A stretch of 64,000 nt of DNA from a virus (Duplodnaviria > Caudoviricetes), in the IMG/VR virus record IMGVR_UViG_3300012007_000001, positions 1 to 64,000 of that record, one strand, 5' to 3'. The translations under genes and the position numbers were made by a program. The notes beneath the pieces are model-generated. The model saw nothing but the letters and a program-made list of their open reading frames with translations. It had not been told where the DNA came from and did not search any database. Below are positions 4,075 to 59,475 of the stretch, piece after piece (positions within the stretch are counted from its first letter, which is position 1; each line of letters starts with the position of its first letter).

Positions 4075-7000
4075 CTAAATGTTTTTAGTGTTCTTTTCGA
4101 TTTTCTCCAGTGTCTTTTTGTTCTCCTTCATAATCGGGAGCATTTCATCAGTAGTCGTGCGAATCATGTTCAGTTCCGAATAGCATTCAACGATATTTGT
4201 CAGCATATCATCAGCCACTCGACCAATACCTTCAACCATGTCTGCCGTCCGTGAAGCGGAAACACCTATGCCATTAAGGATAGGCACTGCCACGTTCATC
4301 TGTGCAGACACATTCTCGCCAGCAATCTGAACAGCCGTAAACCTTCCGTTCAACTCCTCGCCCAAATCCTGTGACATGCCAGCAAATCCCTTCTTGTCTG
4401 CCTCCTGCTTGGCAGGGTCTGTTTCCCATCCGAATGTATCACGCAGGTTGTCGCGTTCTGCAATGGCCGCTTTCACAATTCTGTCATAGTCATCCTTGAG
4501 GGCTTTCTGCTCTTCCTTTGTCAGTTCGTCGCCACTATCCATCGCAGCCGCAAAACTTGAATACCATTCCTCAAGTTGTTTCTTATACTTGGCAAGCATA
4601 AGACTGTTAATGACGGCATTCTGCATGTACTTTTCAAAGTTATCCGCAAAATCCTCTGCTGTGGAATCCATCTTTGCCAAAGCCTGCTCAAAATCGGAAA
4701 CAACAGTATCAAACGATGTTGCCGTAAGCTGTTCACGCGCTTCCTGTTCCAGCTGCTTGATTTCATCCTCAAGTTCGATGATTTGTTCAAGGTACTTGCG
4801 TGCTTCCTCACTAAGCGACTGCCAAAACTGGCTGTTGTTATATTTTAGTTCTTTCAGCTGTTCTACAGGAAGGTTAAACAGATTACTGATGTCGCCATTG
4901 TCTATATACTTCAATTCGTCTATACCAAAAAAACTCTTTTCGCTTGCGCCCATCCGCTTTGCAAGTTCTTTGTCGTACTGCCAAAGATAATTCCAGTTGG
5001 CATCCCTGTTGGCCTCATAACCGTTAGAATGGCTAAACCATCCTGCACCGTCACTTGCCCATCCTCGGTACATCTGAGCAGCGGCCTGTTGTGACTGGCG
5101 CAGGTAGTCAACAGTCTTATTCTGTATTTCCGTCACCTTTGAGCCGTAGGCTTCTTTCATCAGCGACTTTTCATACTCAAGGTTTTCTTTCCATGTGTCA
5201 AGCAGGTAGCCCCACTTTTCAACGGCAGCGTCGAAGTTTTCAGTACCGCCACCGAAGATGCCGCTCATGTCGAATCCGAAGAGTTTACCTACACCGCTGA
5301 CAACGCCGCCGACGATGTTTCCTACACCTTCCACAATATTTGCAATAAGATTCGGGAGGTCTGCAAGTATCGTCTCGACAACCTTTGCAATCTTATTCAG
5401 CAGGTCATTGATGAACTGTGCAGGGTCATCACCCAAAGCGTCGATGATTTGTAGGATAGCACCGATGATGCCGCCAATCTTTCCACCAAGTTCATTCAGT
5501 GACTTGCCTACGCCATCAGAACCTTTCGCAAGGCTTGTCACAAGTTTGCTGATTCCGTTGGCAAAACCGTATAGGGAGCCGCTGGCCATCTCATTCACAT
5601 AGTTGGTAAAGTTTTGAATGCCGTTTGCAGCCTTTTCGGTATTATCTGCCAGTTTCTTCTTTGCCTCTTCCGACTTATCCTCTGCATCCGTCTGTTCATC
5701 AGAAGTGACATTCACCGCATCATTTGCGGCATCCAAAACAGCCTGTGCAGCTTCAATCTGTTTCTTTGAGCCGCTCTTCAAGGCCGTTTCCATATCACGC
5801 TCTGCATCACGCAAATCCTGAACGGCAGCATTGTGAGCCTCCTGCGCGGCCTTTAGCTTCTTAATGGAATCTTGATAATCCTTTACGTTTTTGGATATTT
5901 CGCCCCATATACTGAAATTGAAAGCACTGGTACTGTTGCCGCCTGTCTCTTTCCGCAGTTCGCTACGCAGGTCTGTGTATGACTTCTTATCCTTTGCGTC
6001 CAGTTTCTTGAACTCGGCGGTCTGCATGTATTCTTCGACCTTCTTCAAGGTTTCCTTTGCAACATCACTAAGAACATTGCCGACACCTTCAAACGCAGTA
6101 CTCCAGTCGATACCCATTGCCAAGTTCTGAGCATTGACGCTTGATAATTGTGACTGTTTCTGACGTTCCAGCATAGCTTTCTTGCTGGGGTCTTTCTCTT
6201 CTGCAATCTTCTTGTTGTATGACTGTTCGATGGCAAACATCTGCTGCTGAACCGTTCCGAACTCACGCAGATAGTCATACAGGCTCTCCAACCTCTGCTG
6301 GTTGATGTTGTTCAATCCTTCACGGTATTGTCTTTCCGCTTCTTCGACGAACTTCTTAGCCGCATCACCATCGCCCATGTCGGATGCTGCAATCGCAACT
6401 TCTTTGTAGGCAGATTCCAGCAACTCCATCTTTCTCATTGGTGCATCTGCACTGCTTTCAATCTTCTTGAAAACAGAAATCAGGTTATCAAAGTATTTCT
6501 CACTTTCAGAAATACGCTTTGAATTTACACCAAGCATATCTTCATCCGTAAGCTGCACATTCCTGTACTGCCCACTGGTATAGAATCCCTTTATCGGATT
6601 ACCTTTCTTATCATTGCTGGCGGCTTCAATCTTCTTATTCAGGACTTCGCGCTCCTCGTTGTCAAGTTCTGCCATGCGCTTTTTGTGGTTCAAACGCATC
6701 TGAGCCAGTTCCTTTTCAGCACCGTCATCCATTTGGTCGATGACCGCCTGCTGCTGTAGCAACTGGTTCTGTATTCTCGTCCGTTCAGCTTCCTGCTCCT
6801 GTTCAATCTGCCGTTTCAGGATTTCATCGGGTGAATTTCCCTTTGTCCTGTTACCGCTTCCAGCATTACCGCCCTGCCATTCTTGAACGCCGACGGCCTT
6901 AACCGCCTGCTCCTGCATTTTCACTGCCTGCTCAAGTCCTTTCGTGAGGTATCCGACACGCTTCTCCGTTTCCCTGTTCAGCGCATCTACATTGTCTTTC

Positions 7001-9531
7001 CACCGCTTTGCAGCATCCTGCGTCTCCAGTGAGTTCAAGTACGCGGCATTAGCGGCTGTAAGAGTTACGTCCGTCCGCATGAAGCCAGCAGCACCTCCAA
7101 GCCTTTCGTTTTCGGGTACTGTGCCACCGCCCATTGTCGCTTGTCTAAGGTTTATTCCATATCGCTTATTCAGCCTTTCCCTTTCGTCTTGCGAAATGAC
7201 CTCGCCCTCCTTGAAAACCCTTCTATAGCCGCCACCAGCTACAGTATTATCTATTTGGTCGCGCTTCTTAATTGACTTTGCGTATTCGTCTGCTATGGCT
7301 GTCTGATAAGCTGCTGCCTTTGCCCTTGCAAGCATGGCATTGATAACGGCCTGTGTGTTCTTTGTAAACAGGTTTTCCGCATCTGCAACGTTGTTGACAG
7401 CCCATCCCAAATCGTGAAAGGCATCCTTGTTATCGTCGATGAATTTTTTCTTGGCAGTCATGTCATTGCCAAGTTCTTTCCACTTCCTTCTAAGGTTTTC
7501 GTATGACGCTATCTGCTTGCCAGCAGAACTTGCAACGTCATTAGCCCATCTTTCATGTGCTTCACGCGCCTCCTTGATACGGGCTTCGCGTTCCTTCTGC
7601 AATCTCTTCTCTTCTTCGGATTCGGATTTCAGAACCTTTGTCAGCCCCCATATAGCACCGCACAGAAGACCGATTCCGCTGACCAGCAGAAGGTATGGAT
7701 TCATTTTCGCAACAGTGTTGAAGAATGCTTGTGCGGCAGCGGCTTTCATCGTCGCTATCGTTCCTGCTTCGGTTGCAATGGTCTCATACGTTTTTGCCTT
7801 TGCCAGTGCCAACGTCTGTACCTCAGAAATCAGCAACATGGCGTTACTCGTCTTTTTGACAGTGGCGTATGCTGTTTCCAATCCTACGATGATACCCAAA
7901 TACGACTGAATCTTTGTCTGTATTGCAGCCATCTTTTCGGAATTGGTATTGAACACACCCATAATGCCCGTGACAAGGCTTGCGGAACCAGCCACACCCT
8001 GTAAGGCCGATTTTAGCCCTTCAAGATGACGTGATGGATTAGCGAAATACTCCATTGTGGCATTTGCCAATGCCATCTGCTTTCGCATTTCGCCTGCCTT
8101 TTCCGAAAGTTGTTGAAATTCGGGCGTACCTGCCTTACCTTCAGCTATCATCTTCATCATTTCTTCACGGGTCTGCATTATCTGTGTTCGCATCCGCATC
8201 TGATGACCGCTGGCATCAACAATCTGCTGTTTGTATTGCTCTTGATATTTGGCAAGGTCGTTGTATTCCGTTTTCTGCTTTTCAAGTTCTGCTTCGCACT
8301 TTTCAAGTTCTGCCCTCGCATTTGCAAGTTCCGTGGCTGCATCCTGACCATTATTCAAGACGCTGGTATCGCCATTCTCCAGTTTGCTGATGTAGTCGCG
8401 GTATCTTTCGGCATCACCTTCAAGTGTGCGCATCTTATCAATGGCTTCGTCCATTTCCTGTGTAATACCGCGCAACATGGCTCTTGCCGAATCAAGGCGC
8501 AGTGCCTTTGATGCTGCATCTTCGGCCTGCTGCATCTGACGTAGCGGCGACAATGTTGAGTCAACGGAATCACGCAGTTCATCGACACGACGGCTACTTG
8601 AAGCGAACTGGTCGGAAAGTGCTTTCTCTTCTTTCTGTGCATCCTTGATTCTCTGCTTGAGTTCCTCAATCTTGCTGTTAAGACCAACAACATGCTGGAT
8701 GGTTGCATTATCAACCTCACCATTATTCGCTGCTGATGCGAACTGTGTTTCTCGCCACCACCTTTTCAGCCTTCCATCTTCGGGTTTCAGCTGCATAACC
8801 CTGTCATACGCAGCTTGATACTTTTGTAGTTCTGCTTGCAGGCTTTCAATCTCTGCCTTTTTATCCTCCCATGACTTTTTGGCGGCTTCATTCTTCCGTG
8901 TCTCTTCATCAATGGCAGCATTCATCCTTGCGACTGATTCCGCTGATGCCTGTGCCTGCTGATGCTGTGACTGTGTAAGTCCGTCAATGGCCTGCTTGTT
9001 TCCGCTTATGGTATTTTGGACTTGTTGCCATGCTGCCTGCTGGCGGTCAAGTTCCTGTTGGATTTGCTTAATCTGTTCTCTCAGTTCGGCATTCAGCCTG
9101 TTCAGTTCATCAATCTTTGCAAGGTTTTCCTCGTTTACTTTAATGTTATCTGCAATGGTTTTACCGTCACCAAGTACAGAAACCATATCCACCAACTTGC
9201 CTTTAAGCGTATCAAAGTAAGCATTTAGATTAGAACTCATCTTTTGCAGTTCATCATCGAATGCTTTCAGTTGACCCATAGGAGTTGACACATCAATAGT
9301 GATGCTTTTCTTGAAAGCACCATCCAGTTTTGCACCTTCTACTGCTGCTGCTTCAACCAACTCCGTAAGCCTTGTTTTTGCATTGGTAAGTTCACTGCAC
9401 ATCTTATCCAATACTTCCAGCGGGGCTTTTCCGTTGAACTGATTCAGCTGATTCTCCAGCCGCATTATTTCTGTTCGCAGCTTTACAACTTCTTCCCAAT
9501 CGCTTTTTACTTTGAAATATAACTCGGCCAT
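4075..9531 (-). CDS. Tail tape measure protein (1818 aa)
   Basis: Very long Ala/Glu/Lys/Gln-rich helical protein with Gly/Ile-rich hydrophobic segments, a C-terminal SQD.GEELNGRFTA motif, and the expected position upstream of tail-tip genes. Confidence 0.93.
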   Translation of the reverse strand: MAELYFKVKSDWEEVVKLRTEIMRLENQLNQFNGKAPLEVLDKMCSELTNAKTRLTELVEAAAVEGAKLDGAFKKSITIDVSTPMGQLKAFDDELQKMSSNLNAYFDTLKGKLVDMVSVLGDGKTIADNIKVNEENLAKIDELNRLNAELREQIKQIQQELDRQQAAWQQVQNTISGNKQAIDGLTQSQHQQAQASAESVARMNAAIDEETRKNEAAKKSWEDKKAEIESLQAELQKYQAAYDRVMQLKPEDGRLKRWWRETQFASAANNGEVDNATIQHVVGLNSKIEELKQRIKDAQKEEKALSDQFASSSRRVDELRDSVDSTLSPLRQMQQAEDAASKALRLDSARAMLRGITQEMDEAIDKMRTLEGDAERYRDYISKLENGDTSVLNNGQDAATELANARAELEKCEAELEKQKTEYNDLAKYQEQYKQQIVDASGHQMRMRTQIMQTREEMMKMIAEGKAGTPEFQQLSEKAGEMRKQMALANATMEYFANPSRHLEGLKSALQGVAGSASLVTGIMGVFNTNSEKMAAIQTKIQSYLGIIVGLETAYATVKKTSNAMLLISEVQTLALAKAKTYETIATEAGTIATMKAAAAQAFFNTVAKMNPYLLLVSGIGLLCGAIWGLTKVLKSESEEEKRLQKEREARIKEAREAHERWANDVASSAGKQIASYENLRRKWKELGNDMTAKKKFIDDNKDAFHDLGWAVNNVADAENLFTKNTQAVINAMLARAKAAAYQTAIADEYAKSIKKRDQIDNTVAGGGYRRVFKEGEVISQDERERLNKRYGINLRQATMGGGTVPENERLGGAAGFMRTDVTLTAANAAYLNSLETQDAAKRWKDNVDALNRETEKRVGYLTKGLEQAVKMQEQAVKAVGVQEWQGGNAGSGNRTKGNSPDEILKRQIEQEQEAERTRIQNQLLQQQAVIDQMDDGAEKELAQMRLNHKKRMAELDNEEREVLNKKIEAASNDKKGNPIKGFYTSGQYRNVQLTDEDMLGVNSKRISESEKYFDNLISVFKKIESSADAPMRKMELLESAYKEVAIAASDMGDGDAAKKFVEEAERQYREGLNNINQQRLESLYDYLREFGTVQQQMFAIEQSYNKKIAEEKDPSKKAMLERQKQSQLSSVNAQNLAMGIDWSTAFEGVGNVLSDVAKETLKKVEEYMQTAEFKKLDAKDKKSYTDLRSELRKETGGNSTSAFNFSIWGEISKNVKDYQDSIKKLKAAQEAHNAAVQDLRDAERDMETALKSGSKKQIEAAQAVLDAANDAVNVTSDEQTDAEDKSEEAKKKLADNTEKAANGIQNFTNYVNEMASGSLYGFANGISKLVTSLAKGSDGVGKSLNELGGKIGGIIGAILQIIDALGDDPAQFINDLLNKIAKVVETILADLPNLIANIVEGVGNIVGGVVSGVGKLFGFDMSGIFGGGTENFDAAVEKWGYLLDTWKENLEYEKSLMKEAYGSKVTEIQNKTVDYLRQSQQAAAQMYRGWASDGAGWFSHSNGYEANRDANWNYLWQYDKELAKRMGASEKSFFGIDELKYIDNGDISNLFNLPVEQLKELKYNNSQFWQSLSEEARKYLEQIIELEDEIKQLEQEAREQLTATSFDTVVSDFEQALAKMDSTAEDFADNFEKYMQNAVINSLMLAKYKKQLEEWYSSFAAAMDSGDELTKEEQKALKDDYDRIVKAAIAERDNLRDTFGWETDPAKQEADKKGFAGMSQDLGEELNGRFTAVQIAGENVSAQMNVAVPILNGIGVSASRTADMVEGIGRVADDMLTNIVECYSELNMIRTTTDEMLPIMKENKKTLEKIEKNTKNI

Positions 9532-9559
9532 CTGTATTGCGTTTTGTTATCAATTTCGG

Positions 9560-9632
9560 CAAAGTTACGTGCATTATTCCGCAATCAAAGATTTGACGGC
9601 CTTTATGTTTTCACAATATTTCTTAGGTGAAA
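9560..9632 (-). promoter_or_regulatory. Putative late promoter 1 (tape measure): TAACTTTG -7 box plus TTTCAC-N12-GTGAAA
   Basis: -7 box at 9560-9567, inverted repeat at 9609-9632, 41-bp gap; same geometry at 21774, 27180 and 45527. Confidence 0.75.
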
Positions 9633-9675
9633 GATTTATCTTTTAGGGTGCAGAAAAGTACCTGAATGGCACATG

Positions 9676-9770
9676 AAAAAGGCGCATATCGTTTCACAAC
9701 GACACACGCCCAAAACCATTTAGAATACTCCCTTTCAGGAGCACCAAATAGCCAAAAACGGCTATTCGCC
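9676..9770 (-). ncRNA. Putative small antisense RNA (~95 nt) carrying UUCUAAAUGGUUUU
   Basis: TACCTTTG -7 box at 9773-9780. Then hairpin GAAUAGCC/GGCUAUUU, hairpin UGCUCCU-GAAA-GGGAGUA, an unpaired 14-mer (9712-9725), and a 13-bp stem with a GUGA loop plus U5. G-U pairs fix the minus strand. Confidence 0.7.
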
Positions 9771-10140
9771 TGCAAAGGTACGATATTTTTCCGACATACC
9801 GCACCTTTATGTTATAAAATTGCTGTATCTGTCGGATTTACAGGCAATAAATCCTCGATATAGCACCATTTCTTGCATTTCCGCAAGTCGTACAGGCTCC
9901 AGTATGCCCGATATTTGCCGCCTGTCGTATGTTCGCAAGAAAAGACATCGTTACTTTGCACGACAACAACAATCCTGCTGTTATCTCTTGGCAGTTCCGA
10001 TACATCGTGCCAAAGACTATCGCGCTGCCACCCTGCACCATCCTTGAATGCTTTTTTCCCAGCATTGCGAAACCTAAAGTCTTTGTATTTCTTGACGTAT
10101 TCTTTTGCCGCCAGTTCAAGCCTTTCATTCATTTCTTCAT

Positions 10141-10518
10141 TCATAGCTTTATTTCTTTTTCGATTTCTAACTGTCTTAGGGCTTGTTGGAGTTGGTGAAC
10201 GTAATAGCACCGAGCAAGTTCGATTGTACCACGCCCCATCTTTTTTGCCGTTAAATGACTTCCATCCCACATAACATGTGTATGTTCATTTTTGTTGCTA
10301 ATTACCAACTCTGAATAAAATTGAAGGGCTGTAAATCCATTTCGTTTCAGAATTTCGGGTGTCAATTTCACAGGCTCTATCTCGTCGGCACTGTAGATGT
10401 CATTGTAATCCAGCATAACACCCGATTCCAATATCTGCTGCACCTGTTCGTATTTCTTATTGAATGTGTTATACACCCAATCGCCCACCATCAGACGTTT
10501 TAATTCTTTCAGTTCCAT
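10141..10518 (-). CDS. Hypothetical protein, L.vGD.V...EP..LT.E.L...GF...YVHQLQQ family
   Basis: Motif shared with 30292-30693, 30690-31115 and the N-terminus of 34765-35568. Confidence 0.6.
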   Translation of the reverse strand: MELKELKRLMVGDWVYNTFNKKYEQVQQILESGVMLDYNDIYSADEIEPVKLTPEILKRNGFTALQFYSELVISNKNEHTHVMWDGSHLTAKKMGRGTIELARCYYVHQLQQALRQLEIEKEIKL

Positions 10519-12355
10519 ATTATTTCTTTGATAACACTTGGTCTATATAGTTCTTACAATACTGTTCAATGTTAGCCTTGAAGATTTTATCACGCATCTT
10601 CACAAGTTTCCCATTAATGTAAAACTTTGCATGAAATCCTTTAGTACGGTTGCTATCTGCATAAGTAATGACTTCATACCCTTTGTAACGTAATGTGCGG
10701 ATATGCGGCCATCTCCAGCCGTTGCCAATAAGATGATTGAGCGTCTCACTGAACGAATAACGGGCATTCCTTTCAAAATCAGTCATAACGATTTAGATTT
10801 TATCGTTTGCTTCGCAGATTTTGTCATAGCACCCGCGCACCTTCTTAAACTCCGCATCTGTCAGCGGGTCGCCACCATACATCACGCCATCGAGTAAGTT
10901 CCTTGCATCCTTGAGCAACTCCCTTACCTTATTCAGATTATTCTCCTGTCTTGCTGTCATAGTTTCGCATCCTTTGATTTTAGTTGTTCCATACCTCCTA
11001 CTATCGTCCACACATGGGGGTCTTTTCTGTTCTTTCTCGCACAGTCTATCTTACCGCACAAACATTTGCCACCGTAATCTACCCAGTGAATATCAAGATG
11101 GCACTCAGTGCATGGGTCTGAATCATATACCCCTTGAAAATTCGGGAGCAATTTTGTTCGTTGAAATGTCATTCCATTTACCTCAACCGTTTCGGCCATA
11201 ATCAATCGTCTTTAAGTATATCACATTTGTATTCTACACCCTCATATTCACAGATGACCGCAACATCCTGCGCGATTCCGTGACACGCATCACGGCTTTC
11301 AGCCACCAGCAGAATCTCGTCATCAAACTGCGTATGAACGAACACCTTTTTATCACCCCTGAACTTTTTCCTGATGTATGTTTCGACCTTTCCGCATATA
11401 TCAGCTGGGATTGTGAACTTGTATGCTACCATATCCTATACGATTTATCCAACTCGCCATTCTTATAGTATTCTTTCGTTATCGACTGCAATACGCTTTT
11501 GTCAGTTTCATAGATGATAACATAGACAGCGGCCAGTCCTTTGTCGAGTTTGTCGGTTTCCGAAAAGTGAAAGCCCCTAACATTCTCCTCGCCCAAATGC
11601 TTAGAATAGTCTTTCGCTACCTTCGTCTTTCGCTGATAGCCGCTGCCACAATACACATCGACTAAAACGGTCTGAAAATCGTCATCTGCACCGCCTTTGA
11701 CATGCTGCTGGCAATGTACCTCGCTAACCCTTTTCATAGCCTGTTATAGATATATTGTTTCTTGATGTTTTCTGCTTTCTTGTTGGCCTCCTTTATTGCG
11801 TCGATGCCTTGAATACACACCCCTTCATGGGCTGCTATCGCAGCACGTTCAAACCAAAGGATATTACATGATTCAACATGCTTGTTTTCCTTTATGATGC
11901 TTTCGGCTTCATCAAGCATTTCGACATTGATGCCCATCTCGTTTGCCACCATAATGATGAGGGCATAATTCTGCTCCTTCGTTATCATATTTGCCATAAC
12001 ACTCTTCTTTAATGGTTGCTGCCAGTTCGACTTTTCATAGCCTGTAGCCGTTCCGTTTCCTGTATTTCACAATCTCACTACGGGCTTTATCTTCTGTCAG
12101 GCATAGCTTCTTTATCTCGCTATCCAGTTCATGCCGACATTTGAGGTATTTGTCGTATTCTTCATCTATTTGGTCATTATCCATGCCATGATACTTTCTG
12201 AGGTACATTTCAAATACCGTCATATCAAAAAGGCCGTTCTTTCTGTTCAGCTGTATAAGTCCATAGACGATATACAGAACGACCACAACCGAATAACAAA
12301 TACAAAACGCATCCATACACATACAATGTTTTTCTCGCGCTGTAGTGGCCTTTAT

Positions 12356-12703
12356 TTAGGCCACCACCTTAACGAGGTTGTAAGACTTGAAGCATCTGAA
12401 CTCCTGCTTCTGAATATCGAAATAGGTAATGCAATCCTTACCGCGCTTGTGATTTGCATCATTCTTGATAAGCGGGTTGATGATGCTGTCAATCATCGTA
12501 CCGAATGCCTGACGGGTCTCGCCTGTGCTCACCTTAACGTACCAAAACTCGACCATCTTTGTGCGCATCTTCAACTGCAACTTGATGACCATCCAAGCAT
12601 TCTTGAGAACCTCACTCCATGAACGTGTGCCTGCTGTAGCCTTATAGATGCTGTGTGCCATGTTCATCACCTGTCTCATCTGATTCTTTGCTGTTGTTGT
12701 CAT
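12356..12703 (-). CDS. SH3-fold / WYL-like (DUF2693-like) protein
   Basis: VEFWYVKVSTGETRQAFGT...TYFDIQKQEFRCFK pattern; has its own promoter, operator and leader. Confidence 0.65.
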   Translation of the reverse strand: MTTTAKNQMRQVMNMAHSIYKATAGTRSWSEVLKNAWMVIKLQLKMRTKMVEFWYVKVSTGETRQAFGTMIDSIINPLIKNDANHKRGKDCITYFDIQKQEFRCFKSYNLVKVVA

Positions 12704-12840
12704 AATCGTCGTGCCTGTATTTAATCTGTCGGCGGCAGTTCTAAATGGTTTGTTGTTCTTATTTCTGATGCAAAGATAAGCAATTTAATTTAATCTACCA
12801 AATTTTTCGGCGAAAAAATAAAGTTATTTGCTTTATTTAA
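12704..12840 (-). promoter_or_regulatory. Early-type cassette: operator + promoter + conserved leader
   Basis: Operator 12816-12838; TTTGGT/-33 and TATCTTTG (12771-12778); leader CCATTTAGAAC-TGCC-GCCGAC..AGGCAC..ATG. Confidence 0.8.
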
Positions 12841-20123: not shown

Positions 20124-20150
20124 GATTCTATATTCTAAATGGTTCTACAA

Positions 20151-20468: not shown

Positions 20469-20600
20469 GTTGTCTGTTGCCTGTTTGGTCAGTCGGCTCT
20501 TCTGTTCTAAATGGTTTTGTTTTACATCTGCAAAGGTAAGCAAATAAATTGAAACCGCCAAATATTTTGCAAATAAAATAAAGCAAATAACTTTATTTAA
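20469..20600 (-). promoter_or_regulatory. Early-type cassette (operator in orientation B)
   Basis: Operator AAATAAAG-CAAATAA-CTTTATTT 20576-20598; TACCTTTG 20531-20538; leader core 20504-20518. Confidence 0.8.
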
Positions 20601-20780: not shown

Positions 20781-21662
20781 TTACTGGCCTGTTTTCTCGT
20801 CATCTGTAAACAGGGCTGTAGTCTGTCTTTCAATCAAAGGCAGGATGCCAACCTCCTTCAATTTGTTGTAGAGGAACAGACGGCCTTTCTGCCGCCATTC
20901 GGTGTGCATGACCGTATCAGGTCTGCCGTCTGAACGGGTAATATCAATCGTCTTGCTTTTGATGTAGCCCTCGGAAATGTAGGGTGCATAAAGAATCCAC
21001 TGGCCGTTTACCTTACGCTGGATGCGCATTTTCTCCAGCTGCTTGTTGAATGCAACGGCTGACATTCCGTAGTCCTGCGCTATCTGAGTCGTGGTGACAG
21101 AGCCGACACTTGACAGGATGATTTCAAGGTAATCGGTCTTTTTCTTCATTTCCACAATCTCATCCGACATAGAGGCTATCTGCAACTCCTGCTGATGAAG
21201 GGCATCGGCCTGTTCGGATGCTTTCTGTTCCAGCTGGCGAATCTTCTCATCCCTGCGCTGGATGGTAGTCTGTGCCACCACCAAAGCCCGTGCCATGATT
21301 TCCTCATCGGTCATGTCATTACTGGCTGCAATGTAGCCTCCAGTCTTGCGGATGGATGGCAGGACTTCACCAGTAACCCATTTGCGGAATGCCTTTGCCT
21401 GCGGCTTTCGGCTGTCAAGGATGACATCATACAGGCCATCCTCGTTGATAAAGTTGGCCATCTGCTTTCTGCCGAGGCTGTCAACGATGGGGTCGGTTGA
21501 AACGACATCATCCGAAAGACGCTCTTTTACATGGCTTGCGGAAAGGTTCAACGCCTTGCATATATCTGCCAAGCAAAACGTCGGATTGTCAGGTGTGCCA
21601 GCAGTCCTGATGTCGCCAAACTGCGGGTTGTTGAAAATCTTGAGTCCATTCTTCGTTTCCAT
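20781..21662 (-). CDS. Phage antirepressor (BRO-N + ANT/KilAC)
   Basis: IFNNPQFGDIR...FCLADICKAL...INEDGLY..SRKPQAKAFRKWVTGEVLPSIRKTGGY, and C-terminal TTQIAQDYGMSA..WRQKGRLFLY; start revised to METKNG. Confidence 0.9.
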   Translation of the reverse strand: METKNGLKIFNNPQFGDIRTAGTPDNPTFCLADICKALNLSASHVKERLSDDVVSTDPIVDSLGRKQMANFINEDGLYDVILDSRKPQAKAFRKWVTGEVLPSIRKTGGYIAASNDMTDEEIMARALVVAQTTIQRRDEKIRQLEQKASEQADALHQQELQIASMSDEIVEMKKKTDYLEIILSSVGSVTTTQIAQDYGMSAVAFNKQLEKMRIQRKVNGQWILYAPYISEGYIKSKTIDITRSDGRPDTVMHTEWRQKGRLFLYNKLKEVGILPLIERQTTALFTDDEKTGQ

Positions 21663-21773
21663 ACTTACCTTCTTTAATGAAAGTGGGGCAGAAACGAGAC
21701 CGCACTTCCCGAATCCACCCCGAAAATATCCTAATTCCGTGCCGTGCGGCAGCACATCATTTCTTTTCTGATG

Positions 21774-21846
21774 CAAATTTACCGCTTTATTTCATATATT
21801 TGAAATAAATTCCTTTGCTTGCTTTCACCAATTCAGTTAAGTGAAC
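21774..21846 (-). promoter_or_regulatory. Putative late promoter 2 (antirepressor)
   Basis: TAAATTTG 21774-21781; TTTCAC-N12-GTGAAC 21823-21846; 41-bp gap. Confidence 0.65.
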
Positions 21847-27541: not shown

Positions 27542-27567
27542 AACAAACAACTCCATTTAGAACGTGC

Positions 27568-28227
27568 TTAGACAACACGCCTTGCCGTTCGGCTGTGATT
27601 CAGTCTCCTTGCCCTGTACCAGTCATCGAAGCTGGCGAACTCGTCCCGTTCCGTATCGTCATCATCCAGCGTTGGCAGAAATGCCGTCTGCATGGGGCTG
27701 ACTGTTCGGTATTCGTAACGGTCGATGTGATTCAGGTTGGAGTACAGTCTGCCATTGTATCTGACGAACTGGCCAAACGTCCTGACGTTCCCGTTCTCAT
27801 CCATCATGGCGAACTTTGAATAGCCGATTATCTTGTCTATCACCCTCGTCACATACGATGACTTGAATCCGTACTTCTGTATGGCAGGGTAGATGATATT
27901 CTGAAATGCGGTCTCGCTGTCTGTCATATCCCCTTCGGGCATGATGTTCAGAATGCCGTTGTGGGCAAACCAAATGTTTCCGCGATTGAAGGGATGGCAG
28001 TTGGCCTTGCACTTGCTGCCGTGCGTTGCCAGTCTGAAATGTATGATACACGCCTCCTCCTTCGGCACTTTGTGTATGTACTTCAAGAAGGTCTCAAAGT
28101 TCATGCCCTTATAGTGGTGGCTCTTGCTGACGAATCCGCAACCATGCGGGTTTCTGTGATGGGCGTTTCTTAACTCTGTATCTGTTGGTAACTGCTGGCC
28201 TGCGGCCTTTATGATGATTACACACAT
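27568..28227 (-). CDS. Class II (Ntn) glutamine amidotransferase
   Basis: N-terminal MC, NPHGCG, HFRLATHG, NCHPF, FAHNG, DSE motifs. Confidence 0.88.
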   Translation of the reverse strand: MCVIIIKAAGQQLPTDTELRNAHHRNPHGCGFVSKSHHYKGMNFETFLKYIHKVPKEEACIIHFRLATHGSKCKANCHPFNRGNIWFAHNGILNIMPEGDMTDSETAFQNIIYPAIQKYGFKSSYVTRVIDKIIGYSKFAMMDENGNVRTFGQFVRYNGRLYSNLNHIDRYEYRTVSPMQTAFLPTLDDDDTERDEFASFDDWYRARRLNHSRTARRVV

Positions 28228-28321
28228 AATATTCTTATTTTAATTTGTTGATGATATGATAATGTTTGATTTTTGGCCGTTTGCGGCCTTTGTGCAGGGC
28301 TTTCGCCCTGCTTGCCTGTAG

Positions 28322-29236
28322 TTATTGTGCCTGTCTTGCAAACTCGCGCTGGCGACGCTTGAAATAGGTCTTTTCGTCGTTTGTCAAGAAAGGTATATCG
28401 TCGATGCTGGCGATGGGGTGGGTGAGTCTGTTGTCGCGTGACCAAACAACCAGCTTTGCACAGAATGAAATCCAGTTAGAAATCTTTTCGTAATCCGTGC
28501 TGCCCTGATGCTGGCGAAACTCGATTGTACGGTGGCGTGACCATGAACAAGCATTCACCTTGAAATATCTGTCATTGCCGAAAGCGTTGCAGACATCCTC
28601 CTGTGTGTGGCAGTTTGACAAACGTTTGCCGATGATTGACTCGCAATAGGTGTTGTTGTTTGCCCTGCGGCTTCCTGCCATGAAGCTGTCGATAAGGGTC
28701 TCAAGCATCTGATAGTTCACGAATACGCTGACATACTGCTCGCCTGTCAAGTCCTTTGCACCGATATGAACGTGCAAGCCCGTTGTCCTGTTGACCTTTG
28801 CACCAGCGGCATTCAATGTGGCGCAAGCCTTTTTCAGTGATGCCAAACCGTTACGGCCTTTAAGCACTGGAGTAACACATTCGATGCAGCCGCTGTCGCT
28901 GTAGCCCTGTGCGTTTCTGATGCTGCCGTCTGTCACGAACTTGAAAACGCTGTTGCTGTCGTGATGGTTGTAGCCCTGATATTCAAGGGGTAGGCCATTC
29001 TCCGCACCGATTCTCTGTATAAGACTGCGGTCAACGTTATAGGTCTCCATCTCGACTCCGAAAGTAACGGTGAACTTCTTCGTGGTGGCAGGTATGTATG
29101 CGCCTGCATCATTGCCAAGAATGATTGTGATTTCGTCACGGGTGATGCCCAGCTTCAGGAGTTCAATAACCTTTGCACTCTTTGCCATGCGACCGTTCTT
29201 AATCTCGCTTACCTGTTCTGAAAGTGACTTTGCCAT
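28322..29236 (-). CDS. Putative amidoligase (COOH-NH2 ligase type 2); start revised to MAKSLS
   Basis: TFGVEME, DGSI, ECVTPVL, TGLHVHIG, RYFKVN, TIEFRQHQGS. Confidence 0.85.
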   Translation of the reverse strand: MAKSLSEQVSEIKNGRMAKSAKVIELLKLGITRDEITIILGNDAGAYIPATTKKFTVTFGVEMETYNVDRSLIQRIGAENGLPLEYQGYNHHDSNSVFKFVTDGSIRNAQGYSDSGCIECVTPVLKGRNGLASLKKACATLNAAGAKVNRTTGLHVHIGAKDLTGEQYVSVFVNYQMLETLIDSFMAGSRRANNNTYCESIIGKRLSNCHTQEDVCNAFGNDRYFKVNACSWSRHRTIEFRQHQGSTDYEKISNWISFCAKLVVWSRDNRLTHPIASIDDIPFLTNDEKTYFKRRQREFARQAQ

Positions 29237-29375
29237 AATTCTGTGTGCCTGTTTGGTCAGTCGGCTCTTCTGTTCTAAATGGGTTGTTTTGTTGTTTGAT
29301 GTTGCAAAGGTAAGCAATTAAATTTAATCTACCAAATTTTTCAGCGAAAAAATAAAGTTATTTGCTTTATTTAAC
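29237..29375 (-). promoter_or_regulatory. Early-type cassette (operator in orientation A)
   Basis: Operator 29350-29372; TACCTTTG 29305-29312; leader core 29272-29282. Confidence 0.8.
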
Positions 29376-37606: not shown

Positions 37607-37839
37607 ATTCTTTCTTGCCAGTGTTTTGTCTGTCGGCGGCAGTTCTAAACGGTTTGTTTGTTGTCTGATTCGTATGCGTATTCAAGTTCAGCGGCCATTT
37701 TGCCACTTGTAACGTCATCTGCATTGTATGCCCAAGCAAGATGCTCTGCCAAGTCATTCAGGCGGGAGAAATCACGCATGGCGTAAGCCACGACCTTGAA
37801 ATCCATCTTTGCCAGTTCTTTTAAAACTTTCTGCTTCAT

Positions 37840-37975
37840 TTCTTCTGTGCCAGTTTGAACAGTTGGCTCGTCTGCTTCTAAATGGTTTTGTTTCTATTTG
37901 TTGGTGCAAAGTTAAGCATTTAATTTTATATTACCAAATATTTTGCAAAGAAAATAAAGCAAATAACTTTATTTA
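37840..37975 (-). promoter_or_regulatory. Early-type cassette (operator in orientation B)
   Basis: Operator 37952-37974; TAACTTTG 37907-37914; leader core 37876-37889. Confidence 0.8.
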
Positions 37976-45445: not shown

Positions 45446-45518
45446 TTGCGGGAGCAGGGCTCGAACCTGCGACCTCCAGTAAGTCAGACTGTTAAGCTAC
45501 CAACTGCTCCATCCCGCG
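45446..45518 (-). tRNA. Atypical tRNA: initiator (fMet) body with a GAC (Val) anticodon; CCA not encoded
   Basis: CGCGGGA UG GAGC AGUUGGUA GCUU A ACAGU CU-GAC-UU ACUGG AGGUC GCAGG UUCGAGC CCUGC UCCCGCA A; C1xA72, A11-U24, U37/U38. Confidence 0.88.
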
Positions 45519-45651: not shown

Positions 45652-45699
45652 TTATATTTCACCCAGCGGGCGCATTTCTTTCTGTATGACGTAGTACAT
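45652..45699 (-). CDS. 15-aa mini-ORF (MYYVIQKEMRPLGEI) or gene remnant behind a full early cassette
   Basis: ATG sits at the canonical distance from the leader motif (45736-45748); promoter 45756-45763; operator 45802-45824. Confidence 0.4.
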   Translation of the reverse strand: MYYVIQKEMRPLGEI

Positions 45700-45823
45700 A
45701 TTATATTCGCCTTTCTTTATCCTGTCGGCATCAGGTCTAAACGGTTTTGTCTTTGCAAAGGTACGAAATAATATTGAAACTACCAAACTTTTTTTGCAGA
45801 AAAATAAAGCAAATAAATTTATT

Positions 45824-51730: not shown

Positions 51731-51948
51731 GTTGTCTGTGCCTGTTTGTCATCAGTCGGCTCTTCTGTTCTAAATGGTTTTGTTCTTAAATCTGTTGCAA
51801 AGATAGTGATTATTTTCAGAACTACCAAACTTTTTCGTGAGTATTTTCAACCAAAATGCTTGTTTTAAGATTATTTAATAAATTAAATTGCTTTATTTAT
51901 TTAATAATGTGTATCTTTGCACTTGAATTACAAAACGGAAATAGAATT

Positions 51949-58749: not shown

Positions 58750-59121
58750 AATTCTAAAAGGTTAAAAATCACATTCAAATGAATATTGCTTTTTCAGTGT
58801 TTCCAGTGCCTTTTCAGTAACAAGATAGATGCCGTTATTCATTGGCTTTACCGAGCGATTTTGTTTCAGTTCTATAGGTCGCTTTATCCTGTTGCACCGT
58901 ATCTCATACCGTTCACCATAGACGGCTGTTATCAGAAAGTCAGCCTGTCTCTTGCGTTCATCTAAGGCAGTGGGCTTATATTCACCCTTCTTGATGAAAT
59001 TGGTATCTACAAAATAACCTCTTGCTGTCATAATCGAAATGCCTGTTTACTGTCGGCTCGTCAGTTCTAAATGGTTGTGATAAGGCCGCATGGCTAATAC
59101 AGCGGCCTTGTATGCTGTTTA

Positions 59122-59334: not shown

Positions 59335-59475
59335 AATCTTCTGTGCCTGTTTGTCATCAGTCGGCTCTTCTGTTCTAAATGTTGTTGTTTCTTTTTGTTG
59401 GTACAAAGGTAAGCAATTAAATTGAAACTACCAAATTTTTCAGCAGAAAAATAAAGTTATTTGCTTTATTTAACA
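59335..59475 (-). promoter_or_regulatory. Early-type cassette (operator in orientation A)
   Basis: Operator 59449-59471; TACCTTTG 59404-59411; leader core 59372-59381. Confidence 0.8.

Follow-up and report, generated by a model that had tools for sequence, protein, structure and literature searches.

To our knowledge, the experimentally known antisense RNAs of phages (c4, CI, OOP and sar) each act within a single operon, at one or two sites, and we know neither of an experimental description of a multi-target anti-leader RNA in a phage nor of any described small RNA in a Bacteroidetes phage; a literature search for the latter found none. In the c4/CI family two short motifs presented in loops have their two pairing sites in the leader of the same operon, and the CI RNA of P4, a relative of c4, shares its operon arrangement and its mode of control. 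Rfam 15 holds a C4 model. The damping of many phage messages via a short shared sequence is known from RegA of T4, a protein repressor which binds at the ribosome-binding site. DapZ represents a 3'-UTR-derived sRNA with an internal promoter, and pairing between the 5' and 3' ends is known from icaR of S. aureus. The closest functional analogues in the host phylum are GibS and FopS from Bacteroides thetaiotaomicron, trans-acting sRNAs with extended open seeds. Bacteroides possesses neither Hfq nor ProQ and uses extended single-stranded seeds, as in GibS (PMC7366714, where the class of 3'-UTR-derived sRNAs is also defined), and the FopS sRNAs target the 5' ends of many polycistrons, which they repress (PMC11697453).

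The locus described here belongs to an IMG/VR virus record of 119,237 bp which has direct terminal repeats; its first 64 kb were analysed as the window. The minus strand carries nearly all genes up to ~89 kb, among them those for the large terminase, the portal, the major capsid protein and the tape-measure protein (4075-9531). Judged from its sequence the phage, like its host, is of Bacteroidetes type; its promoters follow the pattern TTTG...TAnnTTTG, in line with the Bacteroidetes consensus (PMC7366714), and the TTTG at -33 is present in most of them. Upstream of the tape-measure gene, at 9675-9780, lies a unit with a putative sRNA, whose single-stranded seed is antisense to a tag found in the leaders of many other transcripts of the same phage. 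We read this unit as encoding a trans-acting anti-leader sRNA and assign a probability of about 0.6 to this reading.

The two-loop design of the c4/CI family is absent from this RNA, as it has one linear seed between its hairpins and the loops are UUUU, GAAA and GUGA. Furthermore, c4 acts at one or two sites in one immunity operon, whereas a dozen dispersed candidate targets are found here in a phage with a Bacteroidetes-type host, and no link to an antirepressor as in c4 is seen, the ANT gene (20781-21776) carrying no tag. The cmscan of the window against Rfam (E<=5) gave no C4 match. The original prediction had called the RNA conceptually like c4 and CI but multi-target, a fair description of an RNA which has no Rfam match and is not a member of that family. 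What it has in common with c4 from the immI region of P1/P7 is that both are structured phage RNAs with a short complementarity upstream of their own regulated genes and that both are physically part of an operon carrying a target (PMC12197685).

GibS and FopS are chromosomal and target host metabolic and PUL genes at the translation start, whereas the RNA described here is phage-borne, its predicted targets are the phage's own leaders and the predicted site is 33-39 nt ahead of the AUG; the cmscan of the window revealed no relation to them in sequence or in Rfam. As in DapZ-type RNAs and icaR, the seed lies just upstream of a terminator that is probably common to the upstream operon, but the unit has its own 5' hairpin, is located past the stop codon (9812) and matches many other transcripts. 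The likeness to T4 RegA consists in one phage factor and a short common sequence near the starts of many messages, but here the factor would be an RNA binding upstream of the ribosome-binding site.

Anatomy and conservation of the RNA unit

The unit is read from the minus strand and begins with the -7 promoter box TACCTTTG(CA) at 9773-9780 (-), which is identical to the -7 boxes of the leader promoters and, as the extended box TACCTTTGCA (9771-9780 (-)), is correctly placed ahead of the first hairpin. There is no TTTG at -33, in agreement with the weak -33 element of the original prediction. Hairpin H1 (9745-9768 (-), 10 bp, UUUU loop) is seen by folding as well as by compensatory changes in relatives and forms, or lies near, the predicted 5' end of the RNA. 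It is followed by hairpin H2 (9725-9744 (-), 8 bp, GAAA tetraloop), identified by folding, and by the seed UUCUAAAUGGUUUU at 9712-9725 (-), which comprises the 13-nt linker between the hairpins and the last base of H2 and corresponds to the 14-mer AAAACCATTTAGAA on the plus strand. The seed is the exact complement of the leader tag and the only long single-stranded stretch of the unit, with an unpaired probability >0.9 and an opening cost of 1.6 kcal/mol in the folding model. The unit ends with the intrinsic terminator H3 (9675-9711 (-), stem 9680-9711), whose 14-bp stem with a GUGA loop is followed by U5; it was found by folding and also recovered by a separate terminator scan, and a rho-independent terminator at this position is a feature by which trans-encoded sRNAs are recognised. 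The predicted RNA (9768->9675 (-)) would have a length of about 92-95 nt. Folding of 9772->9672 gave an MFE of -46.7 kcal/mol (z -7.8), and none of 200 shuffled sequences was as stable. This MFE fold reproduces the predicted two hairpins plus terminator, the two GNRA loops (GAAA and GUGA) and the unpaired 14-mer. The description as a promoter-to-terminator unit is correct with respect to its own -7 box and terminator and incomplete in that an operon of ~3.1 kb, discussed below, probably ends in the unit as well.

Assembled (Logan) contigs from four sequencing runs (ruminant or other animal gut, small shares) were aligned to the unit. Contig ends at 9672/9675 were considered as the RNA 3' end and rejected, as they coincide with a mosaic junction. 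In the RNA library X3 two short contigs join the sRNA promoter segment (9764-9799) to a different downstream sequence, so that this promoter module may be used elsewhere too.

Homologues were collected by searching relatives of the WYL_2 protein, the product of the first gene of the upstream operon, taking their contigs and applying a covariance model built from two sequences. The close relative G001, with ~93% identity in the shared parts, keeps the RNA unit as an island with non-homologous sequence on both flanks and differs in it by four one-sided, pair-preserving substitutions and one loop indel. The covariance model matched L143 (E 3e-14), L144 (E 2.5e-13) and L145, which is identical to L146 (E 4e-11), the E-values being computed over the searched loci. 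Thus homologues exist in four more phage lineages (G001, L143, L144 and L145/L146), always at the end of a WYL_2-headed operon. In the alignment of all five lineages 97.9% of the cells are paired compared to 37-54% in slid controls, and co-variation as observed was reached by 0/500 shuffles; the alignment is model-fitted and the row of L144 is shifted by one column in register, which inflates the co-variation count of H1. Double changes in H1 turn A-U into G-C at two positions and C-G into A-U at one (alignment columns 7-26, 10-23 and 13-20), and those in H3 turn U-A into C-G twice and G-U into A-U or G-C once (columns 69-88, 72-85 and 76-81). The examination of related phages that had been proposed as a check of the unit has therefore revealed a conserved secondary structure with compensatory changes in both H1 and H3, as known for genuine sRNAs. 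H2 has the loop GGAA in L144 and is completely absent in L145/L146, indicating that it is dispensable; in addition, the two bases of its closing pair, 9732 and 9737, have both been lost in one metagenome contig.

All five lineages have an unchanged -7 box cgTACCTTTGCAG while the sequence upstream of it diverges, and the 18-nt block TCTAAATGGTTTTGGGCG holding the seed is identical in all of them. As the stems change around it, the seed is the slowest-evolving part of the RNA. The conservation, the structural co-variation and the invariant -7 box and seed block together make a real RNA gene very probable, and they support the view that the unit is discrete, conserved, structured and non-coding and that it has a conserved -7 box and a terminator of its own.

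The RNA family is, as far as these comparisons reach, narrow. When the whole window was scanned against Rfam, with the gathering score and with E<=5 as cut-offs, a tRNA and one chance snoRNA match were the only results, and no family fitted the sRNA or the leaders. A blastn search of 9000-10600 against GenBank phages gave no match, and no relatives in IMG/VR were reached with the N-terminus of the tape-measure protein as protein anchor. With seed-agnostic and leader DNA patterns, only G001 and the near-identical contig L103 were recovered from IMG/VR and JGI metagenomes, and the same patterns gave 15 single matches in genome contigs of unrelated taxa, which is chance level. The tag is absent from 50 phage records at ~65% TerL identity, a k-mer comparison with five TerL relatives showed no equivalent pair of tag and anti-tag, and the sRNA is absent from 26 searched TerL relatives except for an H3-like terminator in G003. 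In this ~49-kb terminase relative (L124:1521-1585 (+)) two -7-like boxes lie directly before a terminator homologous to H3, which has a GUGA loop and is accompanied by neither H1, H2 nor a seed.

Such a narrow family would also be expected if the unit were a conserved structured 3'-end or terminator module serving mRNA stability or the insulation of genes further downstream, in which case the complementarity of seed and tag would be a recombination relic with no antisense function. Promoter-leader cassettes are indeed repeated at 76-86% identity and located at mosaic junctions, the sRNA promoter resembles a leader promoter with the -33 part deleted, and G003 possesses a -7 box directly before its H3-like terminator without any seed. 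However, in a relic the linker would be expected to drift no more slowly than the stems, and the 18-nt seed block stayed identical while the flanking stems changed compensatorily and H2 was lost. An exact 14-nt antisense match is, by our estimate, expected only ~3-5e-4 times in the intergenic DNA, and we regard this explanation as rather unlikely.

The WYL_2 operon upstream of the unit

No strong minus-strand terminator is present between the leader at 12739 and the sRNA terminator (9680), and therefore the unit is probably also the 3' end of a ~3.1-kb operon starting at this leader. It lies wholly downstream of the stop codon (9812), with the candidate promoter 32 nt after the stop, and the terminator is likely to be common to the sRNA and the upstream operon. 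In every lineage the WYL_2 gene (12356-12703 (-) in this phage) heads the operon that ends with the sRNA, while the genes in between vary. WYL_2 is an Sm-like SH3 barrel (PF10902), and it is conceivable that it serves as a phage-encoded RNA-binding partner of the sRNA. The leader of this operon (12704-12752 (-)) carries a tag at 12739-12752 to which the seed is complementary at 13 of 14 positions, so that the operon mRNA could pair its 3' end with its own 5' tag. In the WYL_2 leader of L145 (L145:9880-10000 (+)) 11 additional nucleotides separate the tag from the hairpin, and yet the core CCATTTAGA is kept, showing that the tag is separable from the pseudoknot-like element.

This arrangement suggests an effect in cis only, with the anti-tag being nothing else than the 3' UTR of the WYL_2 operon which, as in icaR, pairs with its own 5' tag and tunes the stability or the translation of that operon alone. 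The lack of a strong terminator between the leader at 12739 and the sRNA terminator and the linkage of WYL_2 leader and sRNA in five lineages agree with it, as does the operon for amidoligase and GATase, which also begins with a tag (29273) and has a 10-nt anti-tag just before its terminator. The invariant -7 box right upstream of H1 in five lineages suggests separate transcription instead, the 5' hairpin H1 fits a discrete stable RNA, and the seed matches the leaders at 20505, 37876 and 51768 better than its own (13/14, with 10-11 contiguous nucleotides in the relatives); the second anti-tag in a 3' UTR could be due to chance (~0.2 expected). As the sole function, pairing in cis is thus quite unlikely, but 5'-3' pairing in cis or a 3'-UTR origin of the RNA is possible in addition and would be compatible with a role in trans.

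The possible second anti-tag, UUCUAAAUGGAG at 27549-27562 (-) with 10 complementary nucleotides, lies in the GATase 3' UTR, where a strong terminator comes 7 nt later, and is identical in G001. As ~0.2 such 10-nt anti-tags are expected per genome by chance it is only suggestive, and, with the operon starting at leader 29273, it could reflect 5'-3' end pairing or else a second anti-leader RNA. The cassette itself, with Amidoligase_2 and a class-II glutamine amidotransferase (27568-29236 (-)), is a self-contained unit of promoter, leader and terminator among structural genes.

Within the 3' end of the gene upstream of the sRNA a hairpin of 7-8 bp, GGAUUUA...UAAAUCC (9826-9846 (-)), was observed, which is kept in G001 and L103 with a change from U-G to C-G. 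With the short U-run that comes after it, this hairpin may act as a weak terminator before the sRNA promoter is reached.

The leader tag and its predicted pairing with the seed

The tag occurs with at most two mismatches 15 times on both strands of the window, compared to 0.73 expected matches, and 0/100 shuffles reached 15. It is the commonest 11-mer in the genome, and among the copies of this 11-mer the sRNA copy alone runs antisense to local transcription. Exact sense copies on the minus strand were located in the leaders at 20469-20518 (tag 20505-20518), 37840-37889 (tag 37876-37889) and 51731-51781 (tag 51768-51781), precisely the three for which exact complementarity to the seed had been predicted, and beyond the window at 87545(-) and 89493(+). 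Further leaders, all on the minus strand, are that of the amidoligase/GATase cassette (29237-29286, tag 29273-29286, ~10 nt of contiguous complementarity), a promoter-less internal one with a CCGTTTAG variant (37607-37656, tag 37643-37656), one with the tag CCGTTTAGAC (45700-45748, tag 45735-45748), a promoter-less one after a hairpin (59032-59078, tag 59065-59078) and one with a diverged tag (59335-59386, tag 59373-59386), in which only 9 contiguous nucleotides match and pairing is weak. A short-form intercistronic tag is found at 20133-20146 (-), 9 nt ahead of the ATG.

The leaders have a common layout of tag, 3-5-bp hairpin, A-rich linker, GGCA, 8-11 nt and ATG. The stem of the leader hairpin co-varies (CAG/CUG, CUG/CAG, GCGG/CCGU and UGCUG/CAGCA) around the loops GCCGA or GCCAA, and in the MFE folds of the leaders the tag is unpaired. 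The distance of the tag to the -7 box is variable (7-18 nt) and that to the ATG nearly fixed (33-39 nt); promoter-less internal tags exist at 37643 and 59065, and short-form tags lie directly ahead of start codons at 20133 and 87545. The variable promoter spacing, the nearly fixed ATG spacing and the promoter-less copies favour a role of the tag at the RNA level. The leaders of the relatives keep the CCATTTAGA core as well. Neither the seed nor the tag changes in any of the relatives found, so that no co-variation between seed and target is seen. Taken from the side of the sRNA, the seed is conserved, accessible and complementary to targets elsewhere, a combination typical of sRNAs acting in trans.

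Most tags are 7-18 bp past a -7 box, in the right place for a roadblock repressor, which would also suit a double-stranded DNA site such as an operator or a recombination site, of which the copy at 9712 is merely inverted. Against this, there are also internal and intercistronic tags without a promoter, and the tag is in fixed phase with the leader hairpin and the ATG and not with the promoter, is not palindromic, is sense to transcription in all but one or two copies and has its inverted copy precisely in the open linker of a co-varying RNA. We consider a DNA site to be very unlikely.

The genes behind the leaders encode WYL_2, amidoligase and GATase, DUF3560 and small unknown proteins and are scattered among structural genes. 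From their sequences they look like accessory cassettes, and the designation of the targets as early transcripts in the original prediction finds no support. Behind the leader at 45735 (45652-45748 (-)) only a 15-codon ORF is found, followed by an unusual tRNA (45446-45518).

For an anti-leader sRNA the seed offers an exact complement to five leaders and a complementarity of 9-13 nt to the others. Good pairing, with hybrid energies of -15 to -20 kcal/mol, was predicted for 12739, 20505, 37643, 37876, 45735, 51768, 89493, 87545 and 114673 and poor pairing, with total energies of -1 to -5 kcal/mol, for 29273, 59373, 89307 and 115033. From these models the regulon probably comprises 7-10 transcripts. 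About ten leaders had originally been proposed as targets, which applies to the 7-10 that pair well and has to be restricted for 29273, 59373 and 89307 with their weak pairing. As had also been proposed, the CCGTTTAG variants at 37643 and 45735 can pair by G-U. Positions 1-5 of the tag vary between A and C, which is not compatible with G-U pairing.

In the genome-wide duplex scan, a check that had been suggested together with the sRNA, the leaders come out near the top, yet GC-rich chance sites are not clearly set apart from them, and the hybrid energy of the AU-rich duplex of seed and tag is barely above that of the best chance sites. Duplex energy alone is therefore not discriminating. The predicted pairing site, 33-39 nt upstream of the AUG, is outside the normal ribosome footprint, which counts against the trans reading, as do the modest duplex energy, the promoter without a TTTG at -33, the lack of co-variation between seed and tag, the poorly pairing leaders and the A/C variation in the tag. 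At two sense sites beyond the window, 76936-76964 (-) and 114673-114697 (-), the complementarity extends into the 5' arm of the terminator (ACGCCC plus tag). One of them is inside a 302-codon ORF and the other between two small genes, the latter having a total energy (hybrid plus opening) of -13.1 kcal/mol, the lowest of the 16 tag sites compared.

Possible mode of action and place in the genome

For the trans-acting sRNA we infer transcription from the sRNA promoter, pairing in vivo as well as the sign and the mechanism of control. The RNA of ~92-95 nt, with its 5' hairpin, an optional GNRA hairpin, an open seed of 13-14 nt and an intrinsic terminator, would originate from its own promoter of the sigma-AB type, of which only the -7 box is present, or from the 3' end of the WYL_2 operon, with transcription reading into the unit. 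The tag AAAACCAUUUAGA(A), which opens the leaders and adjoins a small co-varying hairpin or pseudoknot, would be the target with which its seed pairs in trans. This tag is 33-39 nt away from the start codon, on its upstream side, and tagged leaders of this kind appear to head about a dozen accessory-gene cassettes. Bacteroidetes mRNAs have no Shine-Dalgarno sites and depend on unstructured A-rich upstream sequence, and for this reason a duplex of 9-14 bp next to the leader hairpin would most likely lower translation initiation. It might block an upstream standby or enhancer region, or it would expose the mRNA to a double-strand RNase. If the stable RNA accumulates during infection the whole tagged set would be damped together. 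The complete picture, in which a master antisense RNA controls a dozen cassettes via their leader tag without Hfq or ProQ and maybe with WYL_2 as a partner, has in our opinion an even chance of being correct.

If it is correct, scattered accessory cassettes would carry a common 5' address and be governed by one small RNA, the RNA counterpart of T4 RegA, which would also be a simple explanation for the conserved leader tag. The system would then represent a compact and testable model of Hfq-independent riboregulation in Bacteroidetes and, with the tag and the sRNA as a portable pair, might be used for the engineering of gene control in gut and rumen Bacteroidales.

As the unit lies directly upstream of the tape-measure gene (4075-9531), and as the -7 box and terminator of G003 lie ahead of a scaffold-like gene, it might be taken for a short terminated leader of a late operon like the 6S RNA of lambda PR'-tR', with antiterminator read-through into the tape-measure gene; this is hardly credible, because the terminator in G001, L143/L144 and L145/L146 faces one or two convergent genes and not a gene on the same strand, the tape-measure gene has its own TTTG/TAACTTTG promoter at ~9560-9595, and the seed would be left unexplained. 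A peptide of 16-27 residues (MVLG-V/A-CR...), for which an ATG-started frame of 16-27 codons is open in all five lineages (27 codons here, from the AUG inside the seed through the terminator), deserves just as little credence, since this frame falls within the terminator hairpin and ends only at or past the U-run, so that a transcript stopped at the terminator would have no stop codon for it. Neither its length nor its C-terminus is conserved, and its substitutions are those needed for the maintenance of base pairs.

In G001 (L003:6181-6192 (-)) and in L143/L144 (L143:10971-10990 (+)) the sense core CATTTAG(A) of the tag is found directly after the U-run of the sRNA terminator, where it overlaps the stop codon of the convergent gene and may be a coincidence.
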